In this document: positions 4,923 through 38,100 of the stretch, in pieces
Numbering within the stretch: position 1 is the first letter of the stretch
Layout: each line of letters opens with the position of its first letter
Assembly: GCA_024233835.1 (NCBI GenBank)
Contig: JACKPC010000001.1
Span: forward strand, 1,349,442 to 1,413,441
Direction: 5' to 3'
DNA: 64,000 nucleotides
From: Leptospiraceae bacterium
Lineage (GTDB): Bacteria; Spirochaetota; Leptospiria; Leptospirales; Leptospiraceae
Program-made: the position numbers and the translations under genes
Notes under the pieces: model-generated
What the model was told of the DNA's origin: nothing
Databases searched by the model: none
What the model saw: the letters and a program-made list of their open reading frames with translations, nothing else

Positions 4923-7900
4923 TTAATTTTTGCGTCTGAATACAAGAGAATAGATTCCGAAGCTATATTTGTTTTCCGGCATATTTTCCTTCCAGATTAG
5001 GTCTCCATCATCTTCATGAAAAGAAATTTCTTTATTATTTTCAAGTTGTATAAAATACTTATTATAGGGAAGTAAGTTGCCCTTCAAGGTTTCCGGTCTT
5101 TTTAGGGTATGTAAGCTATTTTCTTTATAGTTGTAAGCATATATAACATTATCCGAATGAAGGAAGGAAAACTCTCCAAAGCCTCCGAGGCTTTCCATTT
5201 TTTTAGGGAACTCCTCTATGACTTTATAGGTTTTGTCCGTATTTAGTCTGATAAGTTTTGTACCTTTTAAAAGCATAGAGTATTCTTCTGTACTTTTTAA
5301 TAAATGAGAGCTTCCTTCTCCTATTTCCGCAAGGGTTTGAAGCGGAGTTTGAGGTTTTAGTAAGGGGTTCAGGATAAGCCATTTGGATGTTTTTTCTTTA
5401 TCATCAAAAACCATGTAGAGCTTGCCATCTTTTGCACTGGACCATTTCGCATTTTTCTTTAAGCTGATACGGGCCAGAGTCTTTAAGGAAAAGCTAAAAC
5501 TCTGGAGTTTGTATTTTCCTTTTGTATCAATGTAAGAGGCATAGATATAGGTTCCGGCTTCTAATTGTAAAGGCTTTCGAACTTTTAAACTGATTCTACT
5601 TAAGGATTTTCCCGTTTTCAAATCAATCTGCTCGATCCCTTTTTTGGAAAAGGCATATAATCTTCCGTTAACTGCCAGTTTTTTGTAAGGAGTGGAGCTT
5701 TCTTTTCTCCACAATAAAGATTTGTTTGTGTTTCGATAGACTGCAATTGAGCGACCGTAGTTTACGATTAATTTTCCATTTACAAGAATCGGAAGGCCGA
5801 GAAAGCGATCCTTTAGAGGATACTTTTGTATATATACAGGTTTGTCTTCATAAGATTGCAAAAACTTTTCTGATTGCCTGGCCTGTTTGCTGTCAGGAAA
5901 TTTCTCTAATAACTCTTTACTCAAAGACGCCACTTCTTCTTTAAACTCCATTCGTTTATTATCCCGGATTAAGGCGTCAAGGACAGTGATGCAGGCAAAG
6001 AGATTTTTAGCATCCCTTTTAAGTTCTAAGGCTTTTCGAATATGCAATTCTGCTTTATCTAAATTGCCTCTGTCATAGTTTATATAGGCCAGATGGTATC
6101 TCGGATCAGGAAAATCCGGGTATTTTTTCACCAGACCTTCAAAGGCTTTCTCTGCTTCTTCGTAGAGTTCTTCGTTAAAATAAAGAACTCCAATATTATA
6201 AGGTGCTAATTCGAGCGCTGAATCTAATTTTTCCGCCCTTTCAAACTCTTCCCTGGCCTTTCCTTTCTCCCCGATTCCGTAATAGGCAATGCCGCGGGCA
6301 ATGTAGGTAGGTGCAAAACCGGGCCTTACCAGGATACTGCGATTCAAATACTGTATGGCCTTTTCTTTTTCCTCTGTTAGAAATAACAAACCCAGTTGGT
6401 AGGTACTGTAGTAAGCGTCCGGTTTTATTTTTAAGATATTATCCAACATTTCCTTTGCTTTATCATAGTCTTTGGTTTTAATATAGTAAGAGCTAATGGC
6501 TTCCTGTAGTTCAATTTTACTTTCCGGGTTCTTTTGAAGTTCGTGGTTTAAAAGTGCCAGAGCCTTTTCATTTCTACCGAGACCTATCAGGCAATCGGCA
6601 ATTTTAATAATCAGGGAGGTCCGCTTCATCTGCTTATACGCTTTTTCATAATGATGCATAGCGGTTTCGTAATCTTCCTTATTGAAATGCTCATTGGCTT
6701 CTTCTATGATAGGAAGAATGCTTAAGAAGCTTTTGTTCTCTTCTATAATCCGTCTGGTCTGGGCAAGCTCCGGAATGTCCGGGTTATTCTTTTCTGCCTT
6801 TGATAAGAAACCGAGGGCAGAATCATAGTTTTTGAGAGAGTTTTCTCGCAGTGCCATTTTGTAGTATAGAGTTCCGAGGCGGTAATGAATGGCTTCTGCA
6901 TTTTGTTTTTTCTTTTTAGCCTCTTCTAAAATACTTAAATAGAAGGTTTCTGCTTCTTCTAATTTTCCTTCGTCTTCATAAATCCTGCCTATGGCAATTG
7001 CAGCCAGTGGATCTTTTCCTGCCAAAACATTTAGCTTTTCCTTGTATTCAGAAAAGCGAGGATTTCTTGTTTTGGCATACAGACGAACCAGTCCCTGTAA
7101 AGAGGGAATGCTGTCCGCCTGTAGAGATAGAGCTTTTAAAAAGTTCTTTTCGCTTTCTTTGTAGCGGTTCATTAAAAAGAAAGCCCTACCGAAAGCGTTA
7201 TAGATGATATTTTCTCCCTTGTCTAACTGTAAGGCCTTATTGTATTCCTGTAAAGCTTTGTTGAAGTTTCCCTGTCTGAGTTGTGTATCTCCCGCATCAA
7301 GGATAATGTAAATATCACAAATTTGTAAATATTTATCCGCATTATCTTTCCCTTTTAGTTTTTTGGCTTGCAGGTATTCTTTTCTGGCTTCTAAATACCT
7401 TCCTTCCAATAAGAACAGGTTTCCCGTGTTTATATAGGCACTCTGGGAAGATGGATCTAATTCCTTTACTTTCAGAAAAGCTAACATAGCCTGCTTATTC
7501 TGTCCTATGTTCTGATAGGCCAGTCCGAGGCTATTATAGACAGAAGCGTGTTCCGGCGTTTTTTGCAGGGCCTCTTTTAGAGTTTGAATGGCTTTCGAGT
7601 ATAAACCATTCCCCGAATAAGCGCTGGCTAGACTCAGATAAGTTTCCCTATTTTTAGGGTTATATTTTAAAGAGCGCAGAGCATTTGCTTCTGCCTTAGA
7701 GTAATCTTCTTTTAAAAGATAGGTATTGGCAATGAGTAAATACGGTATGGATGGTTCTTTTGATTTTTTAGCAGCTTCTTCAAAGTAATGAATCGCCGTA
7801 TCATAATCCTTGCGCTTTAAACTCTCATTTCCTTTTTCTATAAGACCCGCTCTCTTACTCGCGCTCAGGGAGTTGGAAACCTGTTTCAAATCCGGGTTTT

Positions 7901-10551: not shown

Positions 10552-12108
10552 ATGACTAGTATCCAACAACGTGCAGAACTTCAGCGGCAAATCTGGCAAA
10601 TTGCTAACGATGTTCGAGGCTCAGTAGATGGCTGGGACTTTAAACAGTATGTCTTAGGCACGCTGTTTTATCGCTTTATAAGTGAAAATTTCGCAAACTA
10701 CATTGAAGGCGGAGATGAAAGTATTCACTATGCTGAGCTTTCTGATGATGTTATTACCGACGATATTAAAGACGATGCCATCAAAACGAAAGGCTATTTC
10801 ATCTATCCAAGTCAACTTTTTGAGAAGATAGTCGCGGGTGCGAATAATAACGAGAACCTAAACACGGATTTAGCCACTATATTTGCAGCAATAGAAAACT
10901 CCGCAAATGGCTATCCATCAGAAATGGACATCAAAGGTCTATTCGCTGATTTCGACACTACCAGTAACCGTCTGGGAAATACTGTTAAAGATAAAAACAC
11001 CCGCTTGGCTTCCGTATTAAAAGGAGTGGCAGGGCTAAAGTTTGGTCAATTTCAGGATAATCAAATTGACTTATTTGGCGATGCTTATGAATTTTTAATC
11101 TCAAACTATGCCGCCAATGCCGGTAAATCAGGCGGTGAGTTTTTTACTCCGCAAAACGTTTCCAAGCTGATTGCCCAACTTGCCATGCACAAGCAAGCCA
11201 GTGTCAACAAAATTTATGACCCTGCCTGTGGTTCCGGCTCCTTACTTTTGCAGGCGAAAAAGCATTTTGATAATCATATCATTGAAGATGGTTTCTTTGG
11301 TCAGGAAATTAACCATACCACTTACAACCTTGCACGCATGAATATGTTTTTGCATAATATCAATTACGATAAATTTAATATTCAACTGGGCAATACCCTA
11401 ATCGATCCGCATTTTAAGGATGAAAAACCCTTCGATGCCATAGTCTCGAATCCGCCTTATTCGGTGAAATGGATAGGTTCGGATGATCCAACCCTGATTA
11501 ACGATGAGCGCTTTGCCCCCGCCGGCGTTTTGGCGCCCAAGTCCAAAGCCGATTTTGCCTTTGTGCTCCATGCTTTGAGCTACCTTTCCAGCAAAGGTCG
11601 TGCTGCCATTGTTTGTTTCCCCGGTATTTTTTACCGCGGTGGTGCCGAACAGAAAATTCGTCAATATCTGATAGACAATAACTATGTGGAAACCGTGATC
11701 TCTCTGGCACCCAACTTATTTTTTGGTACTACCATCGCTGTGAATATCCTTGTGCTTTCCAAGCACAAAACCAACACCAACACCCAGTTTATAGATGCGA
11801 GCGGTGAAGATTTTTATAAAAAGGAAACCAATAATAATATATTAACCGATCACCATATTCAAAAGATTATGGATATGTTTGATAGCAAAAACGATGTGGA
11901 AAATATAGCCAAATTGATTCCTTTTGAGACTATTGCCGCTAATGATTATAATCTATCGGTGAGTAGCTATGTAGAAGCCAAAGATAACCGTGAGGTGATT
12001 GATATTACCAGGCTGAATGCTGAACTGAAAACCACCGTCAAAAAGATAGACCAGCTGCGAAAGGATATTGATGCAATTGTCGCCGAGATTGAGGGGAATG
12101 AAGCATGA
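10552..12108 (+). CDS. hsdM: Type I restriction-modification methyltransferase subunit HsdM (N6-adenine MTase).
   Basis: AdoMet motif I ([10 protein letters not shown]) and catalytic motif IV (NPPY) in the order typical of HsdM. The N-terminus matches the HsdM_N style ([31 protein letters not shown]). Confidence 0.9.
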
Positions 12109-13103
12109 GTAATGTCATTATTTACACAACTGATGATGGCTCCACAAAAATCGATTTGCGTCTGGAAGACGGCACGGTCTGGCTGTCGCAACTGCAAATT
12201 GCCGAACTGTTTCAAACCAGCAAGCAAAATATCAGCAAACACATAAAGGCTATTTATGATGATCATGAGCTGTATGAGCAGGCAACTGTCAACCAGGAGT
12301 TGACAGTTCAAAAAGAAGGCAAACGTGAGGTTTCACGCGGCATTATCTTGTATAATCTCGATATGATTTTGGCTATCGGTTATCGTGTGCGTTCGCTGCG
12401 CGGTGTTCAATTCAGGCGCTATGCCTCCACGGTATTGAAAGAGTATCTCGAAAAGGGTTTTGCTCTCAACGATGAACGCTTGAAAAACCTCGGCGGCGGG
12501 AACTACTGGAAAGAGTTGCTCGACCGGATTCGCGATATTCGCTCCAGCGAAAAAGTGATGTACCGCCAGGTATTGGAACTCTACGCCACCGCCACTGATT
12601 ACGACCCCCAGAGCGAAGAGAGCCTGACGTTTTTCAAAATCGTACAAAACAAACTGCACTACGCTGCCCATGGTCATACTGCCAGCGAAGTCATCTACCT
12701 GCGGGTTGATAGCGACAAACCTTTTGCCGGTTTAAGCAACTTCAAGGGGAGCCAGCCAACACAAGCCGAAGCCATGATCGCCAAAAACTACCTCAGTGAG
12801 CAGGAATTACGGATACTGAACAACCTTGTCTCCGCCTATTTCGATTTGGCCGAATTAAACGCCATCGAAGAACGTGAAATGCGCATGGTCGATTATGTGC
12901 GTGAGTTGGACAATATCCTCAGTTCAACCGGACGTAAATTGCTCGACAATGCCGGCAACGTCTCTCATGATGCTGCCAAAGAAAAAGCAAAACTGGAATA
13001 TAAGAAATACAAGGCCAGAACGCTGGAAAACGTAGAAAAAGACTACCTGAAAACTATTGCCGCATTAGAAAAGCAGGCCAAAAAAGAGAGCCGTAAAAAA
13101 TGA
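12105..13103 (+). CDS. rhuM: RhuM-family protein (Virulence_RhuM) embedded in the Type I R-M operon.
   Basis: The N-terminal segment ([51 protein letters not shown]...[23 protein letters not shown]) matches the conserved RhuM signature as I recall it. Its ATGA overlaps with the hsdM stop and with the hsdS start. Confidence 0.75.
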
Positions 13104-14368
13104 GTAATTTAAGCTTTATGGAAAAGCTGCTGGATGGGGTTGAAGTGGAATGGAAGCAATTGGGAGAAGTAGGAGAATTTATTCGTGGTAACGGAATACT
13201 TAAAAAGGACTTAATTGATACTGGTTTTCCAGCCATTCATTATGGTCAACTTCATACTAAATATGGCTTATCAGCTGATAAAGCTTTTACTTGTGTGTCT
13301 CATGAGTTTGCTAAAAAATTAAGAAAAGCCATTAACAATGATCTATTGCTTGCAACAACATCAGAGAATGATGAGGATGTAGTAAAACCACTAGCATGGC
13401 TTGGAGATGAAGTTGCTATTTCTGGTGATATGATGTTGTTTAGACATGAACAAAATGTAAAGTATTTAGCCTATTATTTTGAAACAGAAGCATTCCAAGA
13501 ACAAAAAAGGAAGTACATTAATGGGGCGAAAGTTCGTAGGGTTTCGAAAGATAGTTTAATTAAAATTCAAATCCCCATTCCCTGTCCCGATAATCCCGAA
13601 AAATCTCTCAAAATCCAAGCTGAAATCGTCCGCATTCTGGACGCGTTCACCGAACTTACCACCGAACTTACCACCGAACTTACCACCGAACTTACCTTGC
13701 GGAAAAAACAATACAACTACTATCGAGAGCAGCTATTTTCTTTTGATAAAGAGGACGTTATACACTTACCAATGGGACAAGAGGGTGTTGGTGATTTTAT
13801 TCGAGGTAGTGGGTTACTGAAAAAAGATTTTACCAAAACGGGTGTTGGCTGTATTCATTATGGTCAGATTCACACATATTACGGTACATATACAGATCAA
13901 ACTAAAACATTTGTTTCAGAAGATTTTGCTAAAAAAGCTCGCAGAGCAAAATCAGGCGATTTGGTTATAGCCACAACAAGTGAGAACGACGATGATGTTT
14001 GTAAAGCCGTCGCTTGGATTGGTGAAGGAGAGATTGCCGTTAGTAGTGATGCATGTTTCTATAGGCATACTTTGAACCCCAAATATGTGTCTTATTTTTT
14101 CCAAACAGAGCAGTTTAATAAACAAAAAAGACAGTATATTACGGGTGCAAAAGTAAGGCGAGTAAACGCTGATAATTTAGCCAAAATACTAATCCCCATA
14201 CCTTCACCAGATGAACAAGCCCGAATAGTCACTATCCTCGACAAATTTGAAGCCCTCACCAACTCTATCACCGAAGGCTTACCCCGCGAAATTGATTTAC
14301 GACAAAAGCAATATGAGTATTACCGCGATTTACTGTTGAGTTTCCCCAAGCCGGAGGTAAATGCCTAG
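13100..14368 (+). CDS. hsdS: Type I R-M specificity subunit HsdS with two homologous target-recognition domains.
   Basis: Two TRD-like halves are separated by the conserved central helix ([16 protein letters not shown]) and followed by the distal conserved helix ([16 protein letters not shown]). A TELT x4 repeat lies in the central conserved region. Confidence 0.85.
13648..13695 (+). repeat. 12-bp x4 tandem repeat (caccgaacttac) encoding [16 protein letters not shown] in the HsdS central conserved region.
   Basis: Read directly in the sequence. It is in frame and sits between the two TRDs. Confidence 0.9.
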
Positions 14369-15482
14369 TATGAGTCAGACGTTAATAAAAATTGCACAAA
14401 AGTTAAAAACAAACAACAAAAAAGTGCAGCTCATCTATGCTTTTAACGGCACGGGGAAAACACGCCTTTCGCGGGAATTTAAGCAGTTAATCGCTCCTAC
14501 AAGTGATGGTGATGAAGCAGAACTTTCACCGAGAAAAATCCTGTATTATAATGCTTTTACAGAAGACCTATTTTATTGGGACAACGATTTAAGACAGGAT
14601 ACAGAACCCAAATTAAAGATTCAGCCAAATTCCTTTACCGATTGGATACTGAAAGATCAGGGACAAGATCGAAATATTATTACAAACTTCCAACGTTATA
14701 CAAATGATAAACTAACACCTCTTTTTATTGATGACTTTACTGCGGTGAGTTTTTCTCTTGAACGCGGAGATGATGCAAGTTCAGGAAATCTAAAAATCTC
14801 CAAAGGAGAAGAAAGCGTCTTTATCTGGAGTGTTTTTTTTACCTTACTCGAACAGGTCATTAGTATTTTAAATGTTGCCGAACCCATTGAACGGGAGACA
14901 GATCAGTTCAATCAATTGGAATACATTTTTGTTGATGATCCTGTAAGCTCTTTAGATGAAAACCATTTGATTGAATTGGCGGTACAATTAGGAGCTTTGA
15001 TTACATCCAGTAGCTCAACTTTAAAGTTTATAATCACGACTCATAATCCGCTTTTCTATAATGTATTATTCAATGAGCTAAAGACGAAAGGGTGTTATAT
15101 GCTATTAAAAAATGAGGATGGAACGTTTCAGTTAGATGAAAAACATGGGGATTCAAATAAGAGTTTTTCTTATCACTTATATTTAAAACAGACCATCGAG
15201 GAAGCCATTGAAGGAAATAAAATTCAAAGATACCATTTTATGTTATTACGTAATTTATATGAAAAAACAGCAAGCTTTCTTGGCTACCCCAGATGGTCTG
15301 AATTATTGCCGGGTGACAAGCAAGCTTATTTAAATCGCATCATTCAGTTTACCAGCCATCGCACCTTATCGAATGAAGAAGTTGCCGAACCAAGCGAACC
15401 GGAAAAGCAAACCGTTAAGTTTTTACTAAATAATTTAATTAGTAACTATGGCTTTTGGCAGCAAGGAGAAAATAATGGTTAA
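14361..15482 (+). CDS. PrrC-like anticodon-nuclease candidate (N-terminal ABC-type ATPase, C-terminal nuclease-like region).
   Basis: Walker A ([11 protein letters not shown]) and Walker B / D-loop ([14 protein letters not shown]). The C-terminal LLRNLYE...FTSHR gives Arg, then Glu at +4, then His at +36. This is the same spacing as the PrrC Arg320/Glu324/His356 ACNase triad as I recall it. The position between hsdS and hsdR matches the prrA-prrB-prrC-prrD arrangement. The start may instead be the ATG at 14370, which has a GGAGGT RBS. Confidence 0.55.
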
Positions 15483-18400
15483 ATCCACAAAGCCCATCGT
15501 AGAATCAAAAAACTTTATCGTCTTAGACAAATACACAAGTGAATGGCAGGTCAATCAAAGCTACCAGAGTGAAAGTGATTTAGAAAGGGAGCTGCTCGAA
15601 GATCTAAAAAATCAGGGCTATGAAATTCTAACAGAAATAAACTCTACCGAAAAAATGCTGGCAAATGTACGGAAACAACTACAAAACTTAAATCATGTTC
15701 AATTTTCAGAAAGTGAATGGTCACGCTTTGTAGAACAATATTTAGATAAGCCGAGCGATACCATAGTCGAAAAAACCCGAAAAATTCATGATGACTATAT
15801 TTATGACTTTGTCTTCGATGATGGCCATATCGAAAACATTTATCTTATAGATAAAAAAAACATCTTACGCAATCACTGCCAGGTGATAAACCAGTTCGAA
15901 CAAACCGGAATGCAGACAAATCGCTATGACGTCACGATCCTAATTAATGGATTGCCACTGGTGCAAATTGAGCTAAAAAAACGTGGTGTTGCCATTCGGG
16001 AAGCCTTCAACCAGGTACACCGTTACAGCAAAGAGAGCTTTAACAGCGAACATTCATTATATAAGTATTTACAAATATTTATAATTTCTAATGGTACAGA
16101 TACTCGCTATTTTGCGAATACAACCAAGCGCGATAAAAACAGTTTTGATTTTACCATGAATTGGGCAAAGGCTGATAATACATTAATTAAAGACTTAAAA
16201 GACTTTACAGCCACGTTTTTTCAAAAAAACACTTTATTGAATGTCCTCATCCAGTATTCGGTATTTGATGTAAACAATACCCTACTTGTTATGCGTCCCT
16301 ACCAAATTGCAGCTACCGAGCGTATATTATGGAAGATCAAAAGTTCCTACCAGGCTAAAAACTGGAGTAAGACAGAAAGTGGTGGCTTTATCTGGCATAC
16401 CACAGGCTCAGGAAAAACCCTAACCAGTTTTAAAGCAGCACGGTTAGCTACAGAATTAGATTTTATTGATAAAGTGTTCTTTGTCGTTGATCGTAAAGAC
16501 CTCGATTACCAGACGATGAAAGAATACCAGCGTTTTTCACCGGATAGTGTGAATGGTTCGGAAAGTACCGCAGGATTAAAACGTAATCTGGAAAAAGAAG
16601 ACAATAAAATCATTGTTACCACGATTCAAAAACTCAACAACTTAATGAAAAGTGAAAATGATTTACCTATTTATCAGAAACAAGTTGTGTTTATATTTGA
16701 TGAAGCACACCGTAGCCAATTTGGTGAAGCACAAAAAAATCTAAAGAAAAAGTTCAAAAAGTACTACCAATTTGGCTTTACCGGTACGCCGATTTTTCCA
16801 CAAAATGCCTTGGGTGCCGATACCACTGCCAGTGTATTTGGTAGAGAACTACATTCTTACGTCATCACCGATGCCATTCGGGATGAAAAAGTATTGAAGT
16901 TTAAAGTGGACTATAATGATGTGCGCCCAAAGTTCAAAACGATTGAAACAGAACAAGATGAGAAGAAGCTAAGTGCTGCCGAAAACAAACAAGCATTTTT
17001 GCACCCCGAACGTATTCGTGAGATTTCTCGATACATATTAAATCACTTCAAACAAAAAACACACCGACTCCACACGGGTAGCAAAGGTTTTAATGCGATG
17101 TTTGCGGTGAGTAGTGTGGATGCAGCCAAGTCATACTATGAAGCTTTTAAAAAATCCCAAAAGGAAGCTGAAAGAAATAAACCTCTCATCATTGCTACAA
17201 TCTTTTCCTTTGTTGCCAATGAAGAACAGGATGCCGTCGGAGAAATATCCGATGAAAGCTTTGAAGTCTCGGCTATGGAAAGCAGTGCAAAAGAATTTTT
17301 ACGTGCAGCAATTGACGATTATAACACAGCATTCAAAACCAATTTTACTGTAGATAGCAATGGCTTTCAAAACTATTATCGCGACCTTGCGAAGCGTGTT
17401 AAAAATATGGAAGTAGATCTGCTGATTGTTGTAGGAATGTTTTTAACAGGCTTTGATGCCCCCACATTGAATACATTATTTGTGGATAAAAACCTACGTT
17501 ACCACGGCTTAATACAAGCCTATTCCCGTACCAATCGAATTTATGATGCAACAAAGACCTTTGGAAATATCGTTACCTTTCGGGATTTGGAAAAAGCTAC
17601 AATTGATGCAATTACTTTATTTGGTGATAAAAATACGAAAAATATTGTATTAGAAAAAAGCTATAAAGAATATATGGAAGGTTTTACTGATTTGGTAACC
17701 GGAGAAGCTCGTCGTGGTTATTTGGAAGTAGTATCAGAACTGCAAAGACGTTTTCCAAAACCTGATGAGATCATTAAAGAACAGGATAAAAAAGACTTTG
17801 TAAAATTATTCGGTGAATATTTGCGCGTTGAAAATGTATTACAAAACTACGATGAATTTGCCGGACTAAAAGCCCTGCAAAATGTAGATATGGATGATCC
17901 GGAAGCTGTTGAAGAATTTAAAGCTAAATATTATTTGAACGATGAAGACTTAAATACGATGCAAACGATAGAGGTACCGGCAGAAAGAACGATCCAAGAT
18001 TATCGTTCCGTTTATAACGATACTCGCGATTGGTTACGTCGCCAAAGAGCCGGAGACGAAAAAGAACCTTCGAGCATTGATTGGGATGATGTGGTTTTTG
18101 AAGTGGACTTGCTTAAATCCCAAGAAATCAATCTTGATTACATTCTGGAATTAATTTTTGAACATAACAAGAAAAACAAAAATAAAGCGGAGTTAATTGA
18201 AGAAGTTCGTCGTTTGATTCGAGCCAGTTTAGGTAATCGGGCTAAAGAAAGTTTAATTGTTGATTTTATAAATCAAACAAACCTGGATGAAATTATAGAT
18301 AAGGCAAGTATTATTGAAGCTTTCTTTTCCTTTGCACAGGCAGAACAAAAACGGGAAGCGGATGAGCTTATTCGTTCAGAAAATCTAAATGAAGATGCGG

Positions 18401-18582
18401 CTAAACGTTATATCCTAACATCATTGAAAAGAGAATATGCCAGCGAACATGGAACCGAGCTAAACTCCACTCTCCCCAAGATGAGTCCACTCAATCCCCA
18501 ATACAAAACCAAAAAGCAAAATGTTTTTAAGAAAATATCCGATTTTGTAGAAAAGTTTAAGGGTGTAGGTGGCAAATTATGA
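15475..18582 (+). CDS. hsdR: Type I restriction enzyme R subunit HsdR (SF2 helicase/translocase).
   Basis: Helicase motif I ([10 protein letters not shown]) and motif II DEAH box ([10 protein letters not shown]), with a ~1040-aa length. I chose the ATG at 15475 with the GGAGAAAATAATG RBS, which overlaps the upstream stop. The ORF track offers an earlier in-frame start at 15448. Confidence 0.9.
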
Positions 18583-21074: not shown

Positions 21075-22874
21075 ATGAGTTCTATTATGATAAAGTTTCC
21101 CTACGGTATCATGGACTTTGATAAAATTATTACAGAAGCTTATTTCTATCAGGATAGGACAGCCTTTATAGAGAAATGCGAAAACTCGAACAGCACCCTT
21201 TTCTGTGTTCGACCAAGGCGTATGGGAAAAACTCTCTGGCTCGATACCCTGGCCAGTTATTACGATATTCTCAAAAAAAACCGTTTTGAGGACTTGTTCG
21301 GAAATCTTTATATTGGGAAGCACCCAACGCCCAGGCGAAACTCTTATCTTATCCTGAGGCTTGATTTTTCGAAGATACAACCGGGCAAAACAGTAGAAGA
21401 GATTGAGAGTAGTTTTAATGATTATATTTACAGAACAATTAAGAAGTTTTCAGAAGATTACAGAGATTTTATTGAATCAGATAAATTAGATCTATATAAA
21501 GATAGCTGCACTGGCTCTCTCGATAGTTTATGTAATTACGTCGAATCATCCGGCCACAAGTTGTATGTTCTAATAGATGAGTATGATAATTTTACCAACG
21601 AACTTATCAGCACCAATAGGTCGAAAGACTATTCGGATCTGGTTACAGGGGATGGCTTTCTAAAATCCTTCTTCAAAGTTCTGAAAGCCGGAAACATAGG
21701 TGCCATTGACAGAACCTTTGTGACAGGAGTTACTCCTATCACTCTAACCGATCTTTCCAGTGCCTATAATATTGCTACCCACATCACTTTTAAAGAAGAG
21801 TTTAATTCCTTGATGGGTTTTACGGAAGAGGAAGTGGAAGCCATGCTCGAAAGGGCCTTAGAAGAAATTGGCCTGATAGCTAAAAAAGAAGAAATTCTTT
21901 CTCAGATGAGATACTATTATGATGGCTATATTTTTCATGAGGAAAGCGAAGAGCATATTTATAACCCGACCCTGACCTTGTTCTATCTTCAGGCTCTATT
22001 AAAAGAACGTAAAATTCCTAAAAAGTTTTTTGATAAGAACCTTGATATGGACATCAATAAGTTGGAGCACATTACAAAGCTAAGCTCCGTGCATGACAAA
22101 GTATTTGCTCTTTTAGAAAATGAAGAAAAGGTAAGCATTTCACATATAGTCGAAGAATTTAAACTGAAAGAACTCCTTACTATGGACGAACAGGCGGATA
22201 ACTTTCTCTGGTCGTATTTGTTTTATCATGGCATCTTAACCTTTGCTGGAACAGATGCTTTTAATATTCTTCTGAAAATTCCTAATATTGTTTCTCGCCG
22301 TTTTTATTATGATAGAATTCGTGCAGCCTGCTTTCCTCCAAAGCTGGATGCCAACCAGATTCACAAATCTTTCTTCATAGATCTAAATCTTTCTGACTTA
22401 CAAACCTTTTTAGAAAAAACGGTACTGCCGTATCTATCCAACCGTGACTACATTCAGGCCAATGAACTTTCTATGAAAATAATGTTTCTCTCTCTCATGA
22501 TGCGGGAAGACCTGTATATCATAGACAGCGAAAAGGAAATCTTACGTGGCTATTGTGACCTTTTCTACCTGGGTCGCGGAGATACTCGAAAGAAATATGG
22601 TTTGAAAGATATATTAATCGAGTTCAAGTTTATTAAACTATCAGAATTGGAAGTCACACAGAAAGAAATAAAAGAACTTTCTTATGAAGAACTGGAAAAC
22701 CTTCCTCTAATTCAGGCAAAACTGAAAGAAGCTAATGAACAACTATCCATCTACAAAGAACGTTTGGAGAATAGATTTCTTAACCATAATCCCTTTTTTA
22801 AAGATATGAGTGATTTTGAAATACACCCCTTAAGTATTGTGTTTATTGGTTTTGACAGGGTAGTAGTGAAATAA
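21075..22874 (+). CDS. AAA-ATPase-like / PD-(D/E)XK nuclease-fold protein (DUF1703/PDDEXK_9-type), paralog copy 1.
   Basis: N-terminal block FYQDRTAFIEK...LFCVRPRRMGKTLWLDTLASYYD, cf. the RPRRFGKS motif of Pfam AAA-ATPase_like as I recall it. The C-terminal D...E-x-K signature is CDLFY...ILIEFKF. It is 85-99% identical to the five downstream copies. Confidence 0.8.
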   Translation: MSSIMIKFPYGIMDFDKIITEAYFYQDRTAFIEKCENSNSTLFCVRPRRMGKTLWLDTLASYYDILKKNRFEDLFGNLYIGKHPTPRRNSYLILRLDFSKIQPGKTVEEIESSFNDYIYRTIKKFSEDYRDFIESDKLDLYKDSCTGSLDSLCNYVESSGHKLYVLIDEYDNFTNELISTNRSKDYSDLVTGDGFLKSFFKVLKAGNIGAIDRTFVTGVTPITLTDLSSAYNIATHITFKEEFNSLMGFTEEEVEAMLERALEEIGLIAKKEEILSQMRYYYDGYIFHEESEEHIYNPTLTLFYLQALLKERKIPKKFFDKNLDMDINKLEHITKLSSVHDKVFALLENEEKVSISHIVEEFKLKELLTMDEQADNFLWSYLFYHGILTFAGTDAFNILLKIPNIVSRRFYYDRIRAACFPPKLDANQIHKSFFIDLNLSDLQTFLEKTVLPYLSNRDYIQANELSMKIMFLSLMMREDLYIIDSEKEILRGYCDLFYLGRGDTRKKYGLKDILIEFKFIKLSELEVTQKEIKELSYEELENLPLIQAKLKEANEQLSIYKERLENRFLNHNPFFKDMSDFEIHPLSIVFIGFDRVVVK

Positions 22875-24280: not shown

Positions 24281-26335
24281 CTACTCTGTTATTTTTGTGA
24301 TAAAACGATAGTAATCTTTTTTACCCCTATCAATAGGATCACTACTTCCAAAGGCCTTAGCGAAATCAATCATCTGGCTTTCCGCAATTCCCATAATATA
24401 GGTTGTAGTTTCAAAGCTCTCGATATTCACTATACTTTCACAATTAAGACCTTCAAAGAATTTCACATAAATAAGCCTGTCCTCCTTATCCATTTTTACT
24501 AAAACACCATCACCACTCTGACCATCGTTATTGAAGTAAATGTCTTGAGAGAACATTTGTCCGAAATTAAAATCACCCATATTCCAGTGATCATATTCTC
24601 CTCCGATGTATACGTTGCCGGAAGCATCCACATGGATCTGGTTTCCCATCCAGAGACTAAACCTGTCTGGAATAATTTCCTTTGACCAGAGATACTGCAT
24701 TTCGCTTGTAATAGGGGAATACGCCTGTATCTTAGTGGTAATGGTACCGGTATCGGGAAAGGGGCTTGCGTTCCCAAAGTCCAATCCCGGATATACGAGT
24801 CCGTTTGTATCTCCTAACAGATACAAAACTCCGGCGGGGCTTACCGCCATTTTCTGATAACGCAGGGCTCCCTTAAAAACTTTTACATCACCTAATGAAT
24901 CATCCGGATTAATACGCAAAAGAAAATAGTCTTCACCATCGCTTGTCTGTCGGATAGCCGAGGAACCAAATGCAGAACCAAAGTCTACTTTATCTGTAGT
25001 CCCGGTATCATTAAATGATCCCAGAACATAAATATTTCCGAAGGCATCTGTAGCCATATCTTTGCAGAGAACCTCCGTATTGCCCGTGCCTATTTTAAAA
25101 GATTTATAGTAACTTTCTCCATTAAACTTACTAATCAGTATCTGCTGCTTATAAGAAGAAAAAGACTCACTTGTGGAATCAAAATCCTGTCTCGGATTAT
25201 AATTCCCCCAAAAATTTGTACAGGCATATACAAAATTGGTATTATTCCTTCTTACAGCGGAAACAATATCCAACTCTTTGTTGTCATCCTTTTCCTGCAT
25301 CAGCTTTGTCCAGTGGTAGGAACCATCAGGGCCAATCTTTGTAATGAAGGCAGATTGGAAATAGGAAGAGCGACTATCGGTGCCTCCAAAATCTGCACGA
25401 AAGTTTATATCTCCATTGAAATAAGCAAAGAGGAGAATATTACCTCCTGAGTCAGTGATAATTTTTCTAACAAAGTTTCTACCGCTTCCACCGATTCTTC
25501 TAAGCCAGCCAAAGCTTCCATCCTTATTTATTTTTTGCAGGTAGATGTCTCCGTCAAAGCCAAGGGATTGCTTCCAGACTTCCCCTCCCCAGGCCTTAGC
25601 AAAATTATGTTTGCCGTAGAAAGAACCTGCTACATAAAGATTACCCTCAGTGTCTATAGCTGAAATCAGATTACCGACAGCGGGGAGCTGGCTTTTTGTA
25701 AATTGATAAATAGAGGTACTTGTATCCCCACCTGTTGTATTTCCGTCTGTTGTATTTCCGTCTGTTGTATCCCCGTCTGTTGTATCCCCGTCTGTTGTAT
25801 CCCCGTCTGTTGTATCCCCGTCTGTTGTATTATCTCCATTCGGAATCGGAATTTCCTCAGGGATAGAAGTAGTATCTGTTTTGGGTACCCTTATAGAAGT
25901 AATGGCTTTTTTATCTGTGTTATCTCTGGCAAGAAGCGTAAGCCATTCTCCTTCGAGTATATAATTCACATCGGCTCTGTCAATTCCCTTTCCTGAGATA
26001 AGAATCTTATCTTCTGAAACAGTTTCTGCTTCCTGAATGGTTTTTGGCTGCGTAGATGTCCTTATGAGTATTTTATAAATATCTTCATTCGGGGTAATAT
26101 CATCTTTGACTATTGGAAACTTTACTTTTCCTGAATTTATACCGGTAGAAGTATATTCCAGATTTCCGTTAAACTCGGGTGCTTTTGTATCTACAGGATT
26201 TTGGCTTCCGTTGCAAGCGGGCGACTTCAGAATAATACAAAAACCAGAGATATTCGAAGTAAAACTATCTTCCTTTTTCTGATTGCAAGTAAGCAAAAAA
26301 AGAAAGAGGTTTATAAAAACAAGTATATTTTTCAT
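24281..26335 (-). CDS. Lipoprotein with TTDGD pentapeptide repeat linker and a beta-propeller-like C-terminal region.
   Basis: The likely true start is MKNILVFINLFLFLLTC (lipobox) with a GGAG RBS. The ORF track extends 17 codons upstream. Its N-domain is paralogous to the N-domain of the 39177-41003 lipoprotein. Confidence 0.7.
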   Translation of the reverse strand: MKNILVFINLFLFLLTCNQKKEDSFTSNISGFCIILKSPACNGSQNPVDTKAPEFNGNLEYTSTGINSGKVKFPIVKDDITPNEDIYKILIRTSTQPKTIQEAETVSEDKILISGKGIDRADVNYILEGEWLTLLARDNTDKKAITSIRVPKTDTTSIPEEIPIPNGDNTTDGDTTDGDTTDGDTTDGDTTDGNTTDGNTTGGDTSTSIYQFTKSQLPAVGNLISAIDTEGNLYVAGSFYGKHNFAKAWGGEVWKQSLGFDGDIYLQKINKDGSFGWLRRIGGSGRNFVRKIITDSGGNILLFAYFNGDINFRADFGGTDSRSSYFQSAFITKIGPDGSYHWTKLMQEKDDNKELDIVSAVRRNNTNFVYACTNFWGNYNPRQDFDSTSESFSSYKQQILISKFNGESYYKSFKIGTGNTEVLCKDMATDAFGNIYVLGSFNDTGTTDKVDFGSAFGSSAIRQTSDGEDYFLLRINPDDSLGDVKVFKGALRYQKMAVSPAGVLYLLGDTNGLVYPGLDFGNASPFPDTGTITTKIQAYSPITSEMQYLWSKEIIPDRFSLWMGNQIHVDASGNVYIGGEYDHWNMGDFNFGQMFSQDIYFNNDGQSGDGVLVKMDKEDRLIYVKFFEGLNCESIVNIESFETTTYIMGIAESQMIDFAKAFGSSDPIDRGKKDYYRFITKITE
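25722..25833. repeat. 15-bp tandem repeat (~7 units, ggggatacaacagac-like) encoding (TTDGD)n.
   Basis: Read directly in the sequence. The units are in frame and vary slightly (GDTTDGDTTDGDTTDGDTTDGNTTDGNTTGGD). Confidence 0.85.
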
Positions 26336-26350
26336 GACTTTTTCTCCTTC

Positions 26351-26390
26351 ATAAAATTCAAAAGCCTGTGGGGACAAATTCCCCACAAGG
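26351..26390 (-). terminator. Rho-independent terminator candidate downstream of the 26399-28024 gene.
   Basis: 10-bp GC-rich stem with a 1-nt bulge (cctgtgggga / tccccacaagg), a 5-nt loop, and then CTTTTGAATTTT on the minus strand. Confidence 0.5.
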
Positions 26391-31081: not shown

Positions 31082-33631
31082 TTAGTAGTTTCTTTTCACT
31101 TTGATTTCAGTATCGCTTACACTGACTGCATTAATCGGAGGATCTGTATTCAGGCGGATTTTCAAGCGATTGTCGCCTATCTTTAACCAACTTCTGGAGA
31201 TAGTGATGCTTATAATGCTTCCCCCTGAATATGTTCCGGAGGTGATGCCGTTTCCCGTAGTGTTATCATAGACAGTATACCAGCCCGGGTTTGTAAGACC
31301 CGCTCCATTTGTTTTGCTTATCGTAACAACAAGGTTTCCACTTGCATTGATTACCGAAACAGCTTTGAAAACGTTGCTATCATAAGGCCAGGTTGTCATA
31401 CTTCCGTAGCTTGTAGAGCCTGAGATAATCTCCAAAGCAGACTGTTGCACGCAGGAGTTTCCTGATTGGATGTATCCGCTATTGCAGCCTATCACCGTGC
31501 AGGTGCCCCAATAACTTCCTTGCCAATATTGTTTCCCGGCTCCGTTTGAGATCGAGCAGCTCTTCTCATTCAGAATGCAGGAATCATTTTCCTTGTGGTA
31601 ATTGTAGTAGCAACTTGTGGGAGAACAAACCGAAGACCAGCTTCCCCAGTACCTATCATTACCACAGGTTCTTGTTTGTGAACCACTCCCATTTGCTATC
31701 GAACAGGATTGGCTTTCCTGCTGACCCGGAGTGCAGATCCCATCCTGAGTGCAGACTCCATTTTCAGGGTGGTAACCGCTATTGCAGTTGGTGATACAGG
31801 ATGAGAAATTACCCCATTGCCCATTTGAGGCACAGGTTCTTGATTTCGTGGAAGTACCATTTAAGAGGTAGCCACAACTCTGGGTATCTACCTGCCCGGG
31901 TGAGCAGGCTGCGTCCTGAATGCAAACTCCATTTTCAGGGTGGTAACCACTGTTGCAGTTGGTGATACAGGTTGAGAAATTACCCCATTGCCCATTTGAG
32001 GCACAGGTTCTTGACTTTGTGGAAGTACCATTTAAGAGGTAGCCACAACTCTGGGTATCTACCTGCCCGGGTGAGCAGGCTGCGTCCAAAATGCAGATAT
32101 CATTTTCAAGGTGGTAGCCGGTGTTGCAATTTGGTGCACAGGGAGTGAGTATCCAAATTCCGCTTGTATTGCAGTTCTGGGTTTTTATCATCATGCCATT
32201 CGAAATTGGCTCTTCACAGATAAGAGTTTTCGATTCTCCCGGCTTACAGGGTCCGGGAGGTGTCGTTCCATCACCTGTATCTATGGGTTCTACCGTCAGG
32301 TTGAATAGAGATGAGTTAAAAATGCCGGTTTCTCTATCTCTGAGGTAGAGTTTCCAGTCATTGGCGGGATTAAGATTATTAGGAACATCAAAACTTGCTT
32401 TTCCATTGTTCGAAAGATCTACTTCGTGCCTATAAAAATTTTTATTAGGAACATCACCCTTCTCTGAATCTCTCTTCAGGCTAATTATTACGGAATTAAT
32501 GTTTCCTATGGTATTATAGCTAAGGTTGATTTTTGCCCCTAACTTTACCGAAAGAGTTGTAGTTTCAATTCCGTAAAAGGAGCGGTAGCTTCCGTTTCGG
32601 CTAATAAGACCAATTTTGTCGGGGTCGATGTAGTATTTTTCTATAGAAGCTTTGTCTGCATAGCCCCAGGCCTCATAGTTAAGTGTTGTCTGGATTTTGA
32701 AGTGAAGATGAACACCATACTTGAAAGATATTCGGCTACCTGTTGAACCCATTCTACCGAGAACATCTTGATGACTTACGTTAACACCTACCTTGATTCT
32801 CGGATTAAGCTCAGAGAGGTGCCAGTAGACAAAATAAAGATTTTTCTTTTTCTCTTCGCTGTAGCTTTCCACTACTACAAGGTTACCGAGACCATTATTG
32901 CAACCGGTTTGCGCCCCTTCTTTACAGGAGGAATAGGTTTTGACCACCTTCCCATTGGAAGAAGAGAAGACTTCAGGGTAGACATTTGAATTTACTCGGA
33001 AAGAGTCTCTACCATCGTGGTAGGTTTTGTTTCCCCTGTAATCGTTTAGAAAACCGTTTTCGTTACCGTCATAGTCAGTAGATTTATACTCACCCTCCCG
33101 AAGAGGCTGGTAGAACTCGTCTATCGCTTTGTTGCCGTCATCGAAGACAACCTGAAAACCGCTTTGACTAAGAAGGTTCCTTTCCAGACTTTCCATCTTA
33201 CCATTTTCATCGAGCTTGAACCTTAAAAGACCGAGGTCATATCCGTCTTTTTTCACAAGGTAGATGTTTTCGCCGGTCATGGCTTTCAAGTTTATTTTTT
33301 TGGTATTGCTGCTATTGGCAAGTGTGTTTGGAAGAACTCTTTTTGGGTTTACCGGGTTCACCGTTTGTAATTCCGGAGTAATTATTTGGTTATTTATGTA
33401 GAAGCTTGCTGTTTTAGTGAAAGTTTGTTCTCCCTTTGGAGGTGGAGGTTCGGGATTCGTACCGGGTCCATCCGGAGTATTTGTACCTGTAGCTTTTCCC
33501 GTATCTGAAGTTACTTTTGCGAAGAGTAATTCGAAGAAACCATCCTCTTTTTCATCAGCACAATGGCTGTTGAAAACAATAAGAAGAAGCATTGCTGCTG
33601 TGGTGAGGGTCTTTGTTATTTGACGTTTCAT
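31082..33631 (-). CDS. Secreted M23-family (LytM-like) peptidase with C-terminal tandem Cys-rich modules.
   Basis: Signal peptide. M23 block: VYWHLSELNPRIKVGVNVSHQDVLGRMGSTGSRISFKYGVHLHFKIQ (HxH motif). Then ~57-aa Cys-rich modules follow (CNSGYHPENGVC...CSPGQVDTQSC...TCASNGQWGNFSTC), two of them identical. Confidence 0.75.
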   Translation of the reverse strand: MKRQITKTLTTAAMLLLIVFNSHCADEKEDGFFELLFAKVTSDTGKATGTNTPDGPGTNPEPPPPKGEQTFTKTASFYINNQIITPELQTVNPVNPKRVLPNTLANSSNTKKINLKAMTGENIYLVKKDGYDLGLLRFKLDENGKMESLERNLLSQSGFQVVFDDGNKAIDEFYQPLREGEYKSTDYDGNENGFLNDYRGNKTYHDGRDSFRVNSNVYPEVFSSSNGKVVKTYSSCKEGAQTGCNNGLGNLVVVESYSEEKKKNLYFVYWHLSELNPRIKVGVNVSHQDVLGRMGSTGSRISFKYGVHLHFKIQTTLNYEAWGYADKASIEKYYIDPDKIGLISRNGSYRSFYGIETTTLSVKLGAKINLSYNTIGNINSVIISLKRDSEKGDVPNKNFYRHEVDLSNNGKASFDVPNNLNPANDWKLYLRDRETGIFNSSLFNLTVEPIDTGDGTTPPGPCKPGESKTLICEEPISNGMMIKTQNCNTSGIWILTPCAPNCNTGYHLENDICILDAACSPGQVDTQSCGYLLNGTSTKSRTCASNGQWGNFSTCITNCNSGYHPENGVCIQDAACSPGQVDTQSCGYLLNGTSTKSRTCASNGQWGNFSSCITNCNSGYHPENGVCTQDGICTPGQQESQSCSIANGSGSQTRTCGNDRYWGSWSSVCSPTSCYYNYHKENDSCILNEKSCSISNGAGKQYWQGSYWGTCTVIGCNSGYIQSGNSCVQQSALEIISGSTSYGSMTTWPYDSNVFKAVSVINASGNLVVTISKTNGAGLTNPGWYTVYDNTTGNGITSGTYSGGSIISITISRSWLKIGDNRLKIRLNTDPPINAVSVSDTEIKVKRNY
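31742..32083. repeat. 171-bp near-perfect tandem duplication (2 units plus a degenerate third) encoding Cys-rich modules.
   Basis: Read directly in the sequence (cctga(g/a)tgca(g/a)actccattttcagggtggtaacc... recurs at a 171-bp period). Confidence 0.8.
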
Positions 33632-34842: not shown

Positions 34843-37800
34843 ATGCCGGTGAGTCATTCAAAAGAAATTATCATTCCGAATTGTGATTATACAGAGGAAG
34901 AATATGAGAAAATTAAAAATCGTGTTAAACTCGATAGGGACACCTACAGGGACTTTCGGGATAACTTGCAATTTTTTTGGGAGAGTTATGAACTTGCCAG
35001 AGGTTCGGCGGTTTTAGAAAACCGTGTACGTTTCTTTGGAGAAGGTCTGACAACGGCTCTTGTTTTTCGTTGTGAAGCCCTGATTGAAGGCACAGCCGAG
35101 TCTCATGTCAGGGTGATGAAATATGACATGGCAGAGAACATTGAAAAGGAAATTGAGAATTTTAAGAATACCGTTCATAAAGGAGAAGAAATTTATCCCG
35201 GTCTCGAAGTCATCATAAAGCTTCCCCGTAAAAAAGCGATTCTTCCCATGAAATCAGCAAACGATTCTTCAGGGGCGGATAGTTCCTACAGTGTGATTGA
35301 GTTTCTCTGGCAAAAATATAAGAGTGAGAGAAACCATCTCTTTCACAGGGGAAGCATGATTGCTGAAGCCATTGAACAGGTATACGAAGGTCTATTTCAC
35401 ACATTTTACCGGATTGAAACCGGGCTTCATTTTGTTGAAGGTAAAAGTCTGTATGAGTATTACTATCCCAAGGTTAATCTAAAAAAGTTAAACCCGAAGG
35501 CGGACGAACACAGGTCCTATTTTGAAGCCAGCTGTAAATATTTAGGGGAAGATGTTAGCATCTATGAAACCTTTTTAAACCCGGAGGTTTCCTACCGGCC
35601 TCTTGAAACAGGACATGCCATCCACGGGGACTTAAATCCTTTTAATATTTTACTCGCTGTGAAAAATAAGAAGACAGAAATTCGGCCCATGCTCATTGAC
35701 TTTTTTGAAATTAAGTTTGTTTCAAAGGATGATTGGTGTCCCCTTTTGCATGACTTTGCCCGTCTCGAATCCCAGATTGTTTTTTATTACTTTCATTTTC
35801 TTTACGAAGAAGAGACAGACAAAACGGAAGCGTCCTTTCGACTGCTGTTAAGCGAGTTTGAAAAGCTGATGGTCTTGCTGAATTCAGGAGAATACCGGGC
35901 AATTCAGTCTTCTAAGCCGGAAAATCTAAACTCTGATGCTCTCAAGTATATTTTTAGAATCTTATATTCCTTGCGAAAGTTTGTTATAGAAAATTGTCCT
36001 GATGAAAATATAGAAGAATACTATGCAAACTATATCTATGCTGCCATGTCCTTCTCGTTTTTCTTTTTAAAGTTTACGAGTGAGAACGGCATGGAAATCA
36101 AAAGACATTTTGCTTTAAAGGCTGCTTTTGTACACAGGCGTACTTTAGAAAGCTTAAGTAATTTGAAATTTTTTACTCTCTTCCGGATGAGAAAAGTGGA
36201 CAGACTTTCTATAGACGATTCGCTTTTGAGTTTTTTGGAAGAAGAAAAAGATACTTACCTTCCACCTGAAGATGAGATTGAAGCTATATTAGATTTTTTG
36301 AAGAAAAAAGAAAAACAGTTTTTAATTCTTGAAGGTGTGCCGGGGGTCGGAAAAACGTCTCTTTCCAAATATATGTCACTTTTCTTAAACGCAGAAATCC
36401 CGGAAAAGAGTTTAGAAGTCGATACGTTTTGTCTGCCTTTCTTCTTTGGAAGTGATAAAAATCTCTGTAATGAAAGAGAAATTTACCCTGTATTTTCGAG
36501 GAAGCTTTTAGAGGCCTTTCCTGTCAGGTTGCCTGAGGAACTGGAAAACTCTTTAGACGAATCGAAAAAGTTTTTCAAGATACTGAATCTTGTTTACCAC
36601 GAACACCTGAAAGATAAGAGTCAGCTTATCTTCTGGTTTGATGCTATCAATGAATATGAGGGACTCGAACTCAAGAATGTGATTTCGAATATTTACCCTT
36701 CAGATGTCAGGCTGGTCGTGAGTACCCGTCCCGGTAACGAGAAGCTAAGAAAATTTTTAAAATCCACTAAGCATGAGTATATGGAGATAAAGCATTTCTC
36801 GGAAACCGAACTTATTCATTTCTTTGAAAGAAACGAAATGAACCTGGAGGAAGATGTATACAGGCTTATCTTTCAAAGAACAGGGGGCTTACAGGTTGCG
36901 GTAAAAGTAATCTATGAAATGCTTCTCGAAGAAGAGGGAAAACCCGCCAAGTTACATAAGGAAACTTTGAAGGAGGATTTACAAAACTTGCATGTAAGCG
37001 AGGACGACTACAGCGGTCTCTATGAGTTCTATTTGAAAATTAATGAGAATATCAGGGCTAAGTCTGGGGAAAAAGATATAGCGAAAAGGCTCCTTTTAAC
37101 ATTAAGTCTCGCCCATTCTCCCTTGAGTATTGAACAGCTTTATAGGATTAATCTTCATTCTCTCAAAGCAAAGCTTTCGGAATTTGAAGAGGATGCTCTC
37201 GACGAGTTAAGATCCGAGCTTCAAAAAATATCCGAAATTGTATTGAAGGATGAGAGTGGAAGATATCGTTTGTTTCATCCGACTTTTGAAGAGTTCCTGA
37301 GAGAGAAGTATAAGCAGAGCCTTGAAAAGGTTATCGAAGGCTTCTGTGCGTATTTACTATCCTATGCGGATTATCCCGAAGGGACTAAAGACTTCCTGTA
37401 TTGTATACAATTTGGCGGTGTTCATCTCTACGAATGGGCTGAAAAATACGGAGAAAGATACAAAGAGGCCTTGCATACCTTATTTCTTTCGGTTCTTAAC
37501 CTGGAGGAAGAACAGCATAAAATATGGAAGAAAATGCTCGGCGAATCCGGGTATTTTATTGTTTTACACCGGAACTGGAAAGAGGAATTCATATTTAAGA
37601 ATCTTCTGAGTTCTTTAAAGACCCGGGGTTTATCTTCTCAGGCTAAATATCAATTTGCAGAATTATTGGGAAGTATGGGAAAGAGAGTTGAGGACTTTGG
37701 TTTTAAATCAAGCTGGTCTTTGTTCTATTTTGAAGACTCTCTGAATATTAGGAAAGAATTAATAGCCTTAGAACCCGATAGAACCGATTTCAAAAGAGAC

Positions 37801-38100
37801 TATGCGAGTTCGCTCTTCTTTTTAAGCTTCCTTCTATACGAAGCCGGTGAGAATGAAAAAGGGACAATCAAGACAGAAGAAGCCCTTATGATAGCTGAAT
37901 CGCTGTTGCAAAAGGAACCGGAACACATCAAGTCTGCTATACTTCTCTTCGGTTTTTATGTCCGGCTTTTTTCTCTCTCAAAAGAAAATGAGTTTTTAAG
38001 TAAAGCCTTACAAACCCTACAGCCTTTTTATGAAGCAGAAAGGCTTCCTCAGGAATTTTTAGAGCTTTATGAAACCTTGAAAAAAGAACTGGAAACTTGA
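34843..38100 (+). CDS. Kinase-like / NACHT (STAND) NTPase / helical-repeat protein, paralog A (1085 aa).
   Basis: The N-terminus has a Gly-rich segment (FGEGLTTALVFRCE) plus Lys (VMKYD), a catalytic-loop-like HGDLNPFNILL and an IDFFE (DFG-like) motif, as in the APH/choline-kinase/ePK fold. The middle has Walker A (GVPGVGKTS), Walker B (LIFWFDAINE) and a NACHT-like VVSTRPGN. The C-terminus is helical TPR-like. Confidence 0.75.
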   Translation: MPVSHSKEIIIPNCDYTEEEYEKIKNRVKLDRDTYRDFRDNLQFFWESYELARGSAVLENRVRFFGEGLTTALVFRCEALIEGTAESHVRVMKYDMAENIEKEIENFKNTVHKGEEIYPGLEVIIKLPRKKAILPMKSANDSSGADSSYSVIEFLWQKYKSERNHLFHRGSMIAEAIEQVYEGLFHTFYRIETGLHFVEGKSLYEYYYPKVNLKKLNPKADEHRSYFEASCKYLGEDVSIYETFLNPEVSYRPLETGHAIHGDLNPFNILLAVKNKKTEIRPMLIDFFEIKFVSKDDWCPLLHDFARLESQIVFYYFHFLYEEETDKTEASFRLLLSEFEKLMVLLNSGEYRAIQSSKPENLNSDALKYIFRILYSLRKFVIENCPDENIEEYYANYIYAAMSFSFFFLKFTSENGMEIKRHFALKAAFVHRRTLESLSNLKFFTLFRMRKVDRLSIDDSLLSFLEEEKDTYLPPEDEIEAILDFLKKKEKQFLILEGVPGVGKTSLSKYMSLFLNAEIPEKSLEVDTFCLPFFFGSDKNLCNEREIYPVFSRKLLEAFPVRLPEELENSLDESKKFFKILNLVYHEHLKDKSQLIFWFDAINEYEGLELKNVISNIYPSDVRLVVSTRPGNEKLRKFLKSTKHEYMEIKHFSETELIHFFERNEMNLEEDVYRLIFQRTGGLQVAVKVIYEMLLEEEGKPAKLHKETLKEDLQNLHVSEDDYSGLYEFYLKINENIRAKSGEKDIAKRLLLTLSLAHSPLSIEQLYRINLHSLKAKLSEFEEDALDELRSELQKISEIVLKDESGRYRLFHPTFEEFLREKYKQSLEKVIEGFCAYLLSYADYPEGTKDFLYCIQFGGVHLYEWAEKYGERYKEALHTLFLSVLNLEEEQHKIWKKMLGESGYFIVLHRNWKEEFIFKNLLSSLKTRGLSSQAKYQFAELLGSMGKRVEDFGFKSSWSLFYFEDSLNIRKELIALEPDRTDFKRDYASSLFFLSFLLYEAGENEKGTIKTEEALMIAESLLQKEPEHIKSAILLFGFYVRLFSLSKENEFLSKALQTLQPFYEAERLPQEFLELYETLKKELET

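Follow-up and report, generated by a model that had tools for sequence, protein, structure and literature searches.

The window, as we call the whole 64-kb stretch of DNA that was analyzed, comes from an environmental Leptospiraceae MAG and carries a set of restriction-modification (R-M) genes in the order hsdM-rhuM-hsdS-prrC-hsdR, with the following coordinates and supporting matches:

10552..12108, + strand: hsdM, 518 aa (Pfam N6_Mtase and HsdM_N; 989 bits against the EcoR124 M protein 7bst_D, residues 1-517)
12105..13103, + strand: RhuM-family gene between hsdM and hsdS (Pfam PF13310, E=5e-100; PADLOC candidate system PDC-S05, E=2e-150)
13100..14368, + strand: hsdS, specificity subunit of a Type IC R-M system, 422 aa (Pfam, PDB, AlphaFold2/Foldseek)
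14370..15482, + strand: prrC-like anticodon-nuclease gene, 370 aa per public records (PADLOC PrrC, E=7e-151; Pfam AAA_13; gene calls of the sister assembly L001)
15448..18582, + strand: hsdR, ORF of 1044 aa (Pfam HSDR_N, SWI2_SNF2 and EcoR124_C, the last at E=2.5e-74; 1843 bits against EcoR124I HsdR 2w00_A, residues 12-1044)

A longer prrC ORF spans 14361-15482 (373 aa), with the PADLOC PrrC match covering its residues 4-371, and the public record places the hsdR start at 15475, which gives a protein of 1035 aa. Start and stop codons overlap by 4 nt at both ends of rhuM (hsdM/rhuM and rhuM/hsdS), and the genes therefore look like one operon. The RhuM gene itself appears to be translated together with the R-M genes.

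All sequence-based criteria tested place the locus in the Type IC (EcoR124) family, such families being defined by sequence similarity and subunit exchange: the conserved regions of HsdS can be aligned with those of EcoR124, and both HsdM and HsdR are close to the family prototypes. Moreover, prrC is embedded between hsdS and hsdR of the Type IC operon, the arrangement of EcoprrI-type PrrC cassettes, such that the layout is that of an EcoprrI-type Type IC system with a RhuM insert. We observed this placement of a PrrC homologue, familiar from E. coli EcoprrI, here in a Leptospiraceae MAG. The HsdM and HsdR proteins (989 and 1843 bits, respectively) are very near the subunits of the enterobacterial plasmid enzyme EcoR124 over their full length despite the spirochaete host, suggesting that the cassette was acquired by fairly recent horizontal transfer.

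Other genes of the window can be noted beside this cassette. A 1085-aa NACHT-domain protein (named after the NCBI record) is encoded at 34843-38100 on the + strand, and its presence together with the Type I/PrrC/RhuM cassette suggests a defense-rich region. Six paralogous genes of about 600 aa, also on the + strand, lie at 21075-22874 and 46414-55603 and belong to a family with the PF09820 predicted AAA-ATPase domain, which was scanned in three of the six and assigned to the others from their size and layout; five of them are arranged head to tail, beginning at 46414, 48242, 50070, 51898 and 53804.

The 422-aa HsdS ORF contains two Pfam Methylase_S matches, and in a phmmer comparison with EcoR124 HsdS as solved by cryo-EM (PDB 7bst_A, E=2e-59) its N-terminal, central and C-terminal conserved regions all align. 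An AlphaFold2 model built on 76 sequences (mean pLDDT 90.5) consists of two globular TRDs and two long helices, and its best PDB structural match by Foldseek is again 7bst_A, EcoR124I HsdS. Within hsdS we distinguish the following parts:

13142..13579, + strand: TRD1, about residues 15-160 (Pfam Methylase_S; 57% identical to TRD2)
13595..13735, + strand: first long helix, D1, of the central conserved region, residues 166-212 (DSSP on the AlphaFold2 model; aligns with the EcoR124 central region)
13648..13696, + strand: perfect 12-bp tandem array, 4.1 copies (Tandem Repeats Finder, raw sequence, translation)
13757..14203, + strand: TRD2, about residues 220-368 (BLASTP of the HsdS halves)
14207..14341, + strand: second long helix, D2, of the C-terminal conserved region, residues 370-414 (DSSP on the AlphaFold2 model; gapless against EcoR124)

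The tandem array is the feature on which this study centers. Its unit, CACCGAACTTAC, recurs with a period of 12, 100% matches, no indels and a score of 98 in Tandem Repeats Finder, in agreement with the raw sequence. Read in codon register, the array is (ACC GAA CTT ACC) x4 at 13649-13696, encoding TELT x4 as residues T184-T199 of HsdS, directly followed by L-RKKQY. The original prediction that a perfect 12-bp unit occurs four times in frame between the two TRDs is thereby borne out by Tandem Repeats Finder, the sequence and its translation alike; its coordinates, 13648-13695, describe the same array in the register of Tandem Repeats Finder, the uninterrupted perfect run being 49 nt long and ending at base 13696. 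Four successive perfect 12-mers are far beyond what chance would be expected to yield, and 8 of the 11 ACC codons of hsdS reside inside the array.

Tandem arrays scoring at least 50 number only five in the 64-kb window, that of hsdS among them. Among the repeats seen elsewhere in the window, the hexanucleotide GTTCCT is present in 17.8 copies at 40402-40508 (91% matches), in frame within an ORF for a Big_9 Ig-domain protein (39177-41003, - strand), and is both longer than the hsdS array and more likely to undergo slippage. A 15-bp repeat occurs 7.4 times at 25720-25830 in ORF 24281-26386, a 171-bp repeat 2.3 times at 31743-32136 in an 849-aa gene of the peptidoglycan DD-metalloendopeptidase family, and a 144-bp repeat 7.3 times at 44399-45451 in the 1611-aa ORF 41369-46204.

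In the predicted structure, the TELT array (residues 184-199) falls within the D1 helix (166-212), placing a tandem repeat of 12 bp and 4 aa inside D1, between the two TRDs. D2 is probably the antiparallel partner of D1, a pairing taken from the solved S-subunit structures described in PMC3874165. The two TRDs resemble each other: in BLASTP, the N-terminal half of HsdS, up to and including TRD1, and the C-terminal half, beginning with TRD2, shared 57% identity over 161 aa (E=1e-64), and given this identity the half-sites are probably alike and the target is probably a near-palindromic bipartite sequence. Searching the window with HsdS by tblastn for silent copies returned hsdS itself and no other, which leaves no role here for TRD shuffling by inversion. 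No homologue above 80% identity was found in the HsdS homologue search; the nearest ones, from E. coli and its relatives (75% identity), have the same TRD types and linkers of 9 or 13 aa.

To relate the array to the repeats of known enzymes, HsdS was aligned with the two-TAEL EcoR124 chain by HMMER. The array aligns to the TAEL repeats in the central conserved region of this Type IC HsdS, with one 4-aa gap at the repeats and otherwise no gap from the end of TRD1 to the start of TRD2, so the expected equivalence of position with the EcoR124 repeats holds. The single 4-aa gap also means that the window HsdS exceeds EcoR124I by exactly one unit and equals EcoR124II in length. The facts on which this expectation had drawn are correctly cited: EcoR124I has two TAEL units and an N6 gap, and EcoR124II three units and an N7 gap (PMC3874165). 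By its sequence, the TELT array belongs to the spacer-length repeats of the TAEL/LEAT class known from Type IC HsdS.

It had further been proposed that four units predict an unusually long spacer, a claim that did not survive measurement of the linker. Between the conserved ILDxF and RKKQY motifs the window HsdS has 17 aa. For the 120 closest homologues, in which the segment was delimited by ILDxF and R[KQ]KQY, we found 13 aa in 70 and 17 aa in 35, with 9 aa in four, 5 aa in one, 14 aa in one and 39 aa in one (the last an apparent artefact of the pattern), while in 8 of the 120 the central linker was not measurable. None of these 120 homologues has a credible central linker above 17 aa. Wherever the distal (D2) linker could be measured, in 106 homologues, its length was 17 aa. 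Counts of units cannot be compared between the two proteins, because EcoR124II, which reads TALT-AELT-AELT-AELN-M, also contains four xxLT units, the first of them degenerate. Judged by these sequences, four units give the symmetric 17/17 arrangement that is common among family members, and the quantity with predictive value is the length of the linker and not the number of perfect units, a distinction that corrects a tempting miscount. By family analogy, the 4-unit allele would correspond to the class in which the methylated adenines are 8 nt apart, and a 3-unit allele to the 7-nt class (Table 1 of PMC3874165), although the actual number of N depends on the half-sites of the window enzyme.

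We then examined variation in the number of units, reaching sister assemblies of the locus via the neighboring RhuM and PrrC proteins. Five assemblies were compared, the window and four others, with the following identities, unit numbers and haplotypes (written as SNP 11497 / unit number / sites 14330 and 14341):

Window: haplotype A / 4 / TT
L001 (GCA_020430645.1): 100% identical to the window over 9.8 kb; 4 units; haplotype A / 4 / TT
L003 (ERZ28655569): 99.8% identical to the window; 4 units; haplotype G / 4 / TT
L002 (ERZ27248703): 99.8% identical to the window, with 2 mismatches and a 12-bp gap in 7.0 kb; 3 units; haplotype A / 3 / AA
L004 (ERZ27309295): 99.7% identical to the window, with 1 mismatch and a 12-bp gap in 4.3 kb; 3 units; haplotype G / 3 / TT

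Units have thus been gained or lost in nature, as had been anticipated: these near-identical contigs carry either 3 or 4 of them, and the unit number differs between genes that are otherwise the same (99.7-100% nucleotide identity). L001 and L003 encode the window HsdS. In L002 and L004 the aligner set the 12-bp deletion at 13648-13659, and their 3-unit alleles encode a full-length HsdS of 418 aa with a 13-aa linker. Genuine differences among the assemblies are confined to 11497-15605, beside a misaligned 30-nt junk end of L003; a run of A substitutions at 15595-15605, at the contig end of L003, is most likely an assembly artefact.

The same one-unit step was found among the homologues. Three pairs (P0022/P0028, P0012/P0024 and P0005/P0006) are 100% identical outside the linker and one unit apart within it; all three belong to the E. 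coli group, P0006 being from E. ruysiae, and share their TRD types with the window HsdS.

A metagenome scan with the flank plus first unit, CTGGACGCGTTCACCGAACTTACC, returned no match, and the Logan contigs L011-L013 begin inside the array or stop short of it and are uninformative on unit number. Scans of genome and metagenome collections with two exact units retrieved only three hsdS genes, all with other TRDs: L006, from a Spirochaetales MAG (17-aa linker), L007 (13 aa) and L008 (17 aa). A further match of this two-unit scan, L005 from an Alistipes MAG, was rejected as a chance match, and the L005-L008 matches added nothing to the variation within the lineage. L006 is of interest in its own right: at 5560-5760 (- strand) of the Spirochaetales bacterium MAG JAFGWI010000277.1, an hsdS with unrelated TRDs has near-identical central DNA, encoding TELT x3 plus TELG in a 17-aa linker with one synonymous change in the first unit. 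A TELT-type D1 module therefore travels with different TRDs.

A difference of one repeat unit between metagenome assemblies could in principle be an artefact of assembly or sequencing at a tandem repeat, since assemblers can collapse such repeats and one Logan contig assembled at k=31 (L011) does break within the array. Typical short reads are longer than the 49-nt array. The contig names of L002 and L004 suggest k=141, likewise longer than the array, and each state is present in at least two independent assemblies. Together these points make such an artefact unlikely; furthermore, the difference amounts to exactly one in-frame unit and both resulting lengths coincide with the two canonical classes of the family. 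We therefore consider this explanation extremely improbable, and take the 3/4 polymorphism to be natural.

SNP 11497 (A/G) and unit number (3/4) occur in every possible pairing, four in all, implying that the unit number changed more than once, that recombination has taken place, or that strains were mixed in assembly. Consensus contigs from metagenomes can be chimeras of co-existing strains, and the four-haplotype pattern may thus reflect recombination or assembly mixing and not recurrent change. Whichever of these gave rise to the four haplotypes, both alleles circulate in very closely related populations.

We consider it probable that the TELT array is a length-setting module of D1, in which 3- and 4-unit alleles give gaps of n-1 and n at the same half-sites and slippage or unequal exchange alters the unit number. 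The distance between the TRDs of Type IC enzymes is set by an antiparallel coiled coil of the D1 and D2 helices, and here D1 and the C-terminal helix D2 would be expected to pair in the same manner and keep the two TRDs apart. In EcoR124I/II, as in EcoR124-EcoDXXI hybrids, the gap differs by 1 bp for each TAEL unit (PMC3874165); by extension, each 4-aa unit (12 bp) gained or lost in D1 would shift the separation of the methylated adenines, and hence the non-specific gap, by 1 bp. The 4-unit allele, with its 17-aa linker, falls in the class of EcoR124II, EcoDXXI and EcoprrI and matches the fixed 17-aa linker of D2, and the 3-unit allele of the sister contigs, with its 13-aa linker, falls in the class of EcoR124I. 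Both alleles would recognize the same two half-sites, separated by gaps of n and n-1, and units would be gained or lost by slipped-strand mispairing or unequal crossing-over in the perfect 48-nt array. The recognition sequence and the 1-bp shift are in this case extrapolated from relatives with other TRDs, and any effect on the methylated motif, like the manner and rate of unit change, would follow from the same analogy. Even EcoR124 is without a settled account of how the coiled coil takes up a change made in D1 on one side only (PMC3874165).

The repeat might instead represent nothing beyond the periodicity of a coiled-coil helix, with differences in unit number being strain variation that leaves the recognized sequence as it is, and indeed TELT- or TAEL-like periodicity is general in the D1 helices of Type IC enzymes. 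Yet each Type IC enzyme that has been tested, namely EcoR124I/II, the EcoR124-EcoDXXI hybrids and NgoAV, shifts by 1 bp per unit (PMC3874165, PMC6789123), and the linkers of the homologues, apart from the single 14- and 39-aa values given above, come in steps of four only (5, 9, 13 and 17 aa), as a functional ruler would give. We regard a neutral role as very unlikely.

A separate question is how readily the unit number changes, since it had also been proposed that gain or loss of units switches specificity in a phase-variable manner. The locus could be a true contingency locus, in which reversible, high-frequency switching between 3 and 4 (perhaps other) units within clones would serve bet-hedging, with dual specificity in both defense and methylome. 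The perfect 48-nt repeat, the separation of 3- and 4-unit backgrounds by only 1-2 SNPs and the occurrence of all four SNP-by-repeat combinations are consistent with such switching, as is the range of 0 to 3 LEAT units among gonococcal strains, with matching changes in motif, in NgoAV (PMC6789123). Set against this are the modest size of the array, only four units with a 12-bp period, from which a low or modest switching rate may be expected; the alternative origins of the four-haplotype pattern in recombination or chimeric assembly; and the precedent of EcoR124, in which unequal crossing-over at the 12-bp repeat, and not classical phase variation, is given as the cause of the change in unit number (PMC3874165). 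Moreover, both alleles encode a full-length HsdS, and ON/OFF switching by a frame-shifting repeat with truncated products is impossible here because the 12-bp unit is in frame; a survey of phase-variable hsd genes leaves out repeats divisible by three, and names TAEL only as a known change of specificity (PMC7383803). Taken together, we view a contingency locus of this kind as unlikely. Bolder, and in our judgment quite doubtful, is the proposal of a fast and reversible switch between 3 and 4 (perhaps 2 or 5) units, coupled to a PrrC guardian, by which a free-living Leptospiraceae population would hold at least two Type I specificities at once. If true, such a switch would represent in-frame specificity phase variation outside host-adapted pathogens, operating on the same half-sites with gaps of n-1 and n.

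Returning to the length-setting module as our preferred interpretation, its conceptual gain is small because the mechanism itself is textbook. What the locus offers is a natural 3-/4-unit allele pair of one Type IC specificity subunit in an environmental spirochaete lineage, a ready-made pair with which the one-unit-per-base-pair rule can be put to the test. By analogy, the principle of one 4-aa unit per bp of gap known from EcoR124I/II and NgoAV would extend beyond enterobacterial plasmids and Neisseria, and methylome motifs of this lineage would be expected in two versions whose gaps differ by 1 bp.

Three known systems bear comparison with the locus. NgoAV, a Type IC system of Neisseria gonorrhoeae with 0-3 LEAT units, shares with it a strain-to-strain variation in the number of 4-aa repeats in the central region of HsdS, and has as its own feature a demonstrated 1-bp change in the gap of the methylated motif, with GAC N6 TGC methylated by the one-LEAT form and GAC N7 TGC by the two-LEAT form (PMC6789123). 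Unlike the window hsdS, in which none was noticed on reading, NgoAV has a poly-G tract that truncates HsdS, with specificity switched by frameshift.

EcoR124I and EcoR124II (TAEL x2 and x3, recognizing GAA N6 RTCG and GAA N7 RTCG, respectively) share with the window the position in D1, the unit of 12 bp and 4 aa, the occurrence of 13- and 17-aa linkers both as natural alleles, and the flanking conserved sequence IVRILDxF ... RKKQYNYYR, and their HsdM and HsdR are near-full-length homologues. The unit itself differs, being TELT in the window and TAEL in EcoR124, and whereas the four units of the window are identical in DNA, in the E. coli enzymes the first unit is degenerate (TALT) and the tail differs (NM). 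In addition, the window has a pair of mutually similar TRDs unrelated to those of EcoR124, the host is a Leptospiraceae MAG from the environment as opposed to an enterobacterial plasmid, and the operon carries the rhuM and prrC inserts.

Finally, EcoprrI (CCA N7 RTGC, three TAEL units) resembles the locus in being a Type IC system that contains a PrrC homologue (PMC12707154), encoded in the window between hsdS and hsdR, and in its 17-aa class of D1 linker, as deduced from the three TAEL repeats (PMC3874165). Enzymes with three TAEL units, namely EcoR124II, EcoDXXI and EcoprrI, represent the apparent optimum according to the same review (PMC3874165). Compared with EcoprrI, the window locus differs in its TRDs, in its perfect TELT array and in having an additional RhuM gene, placed between hsdM and hsdS.
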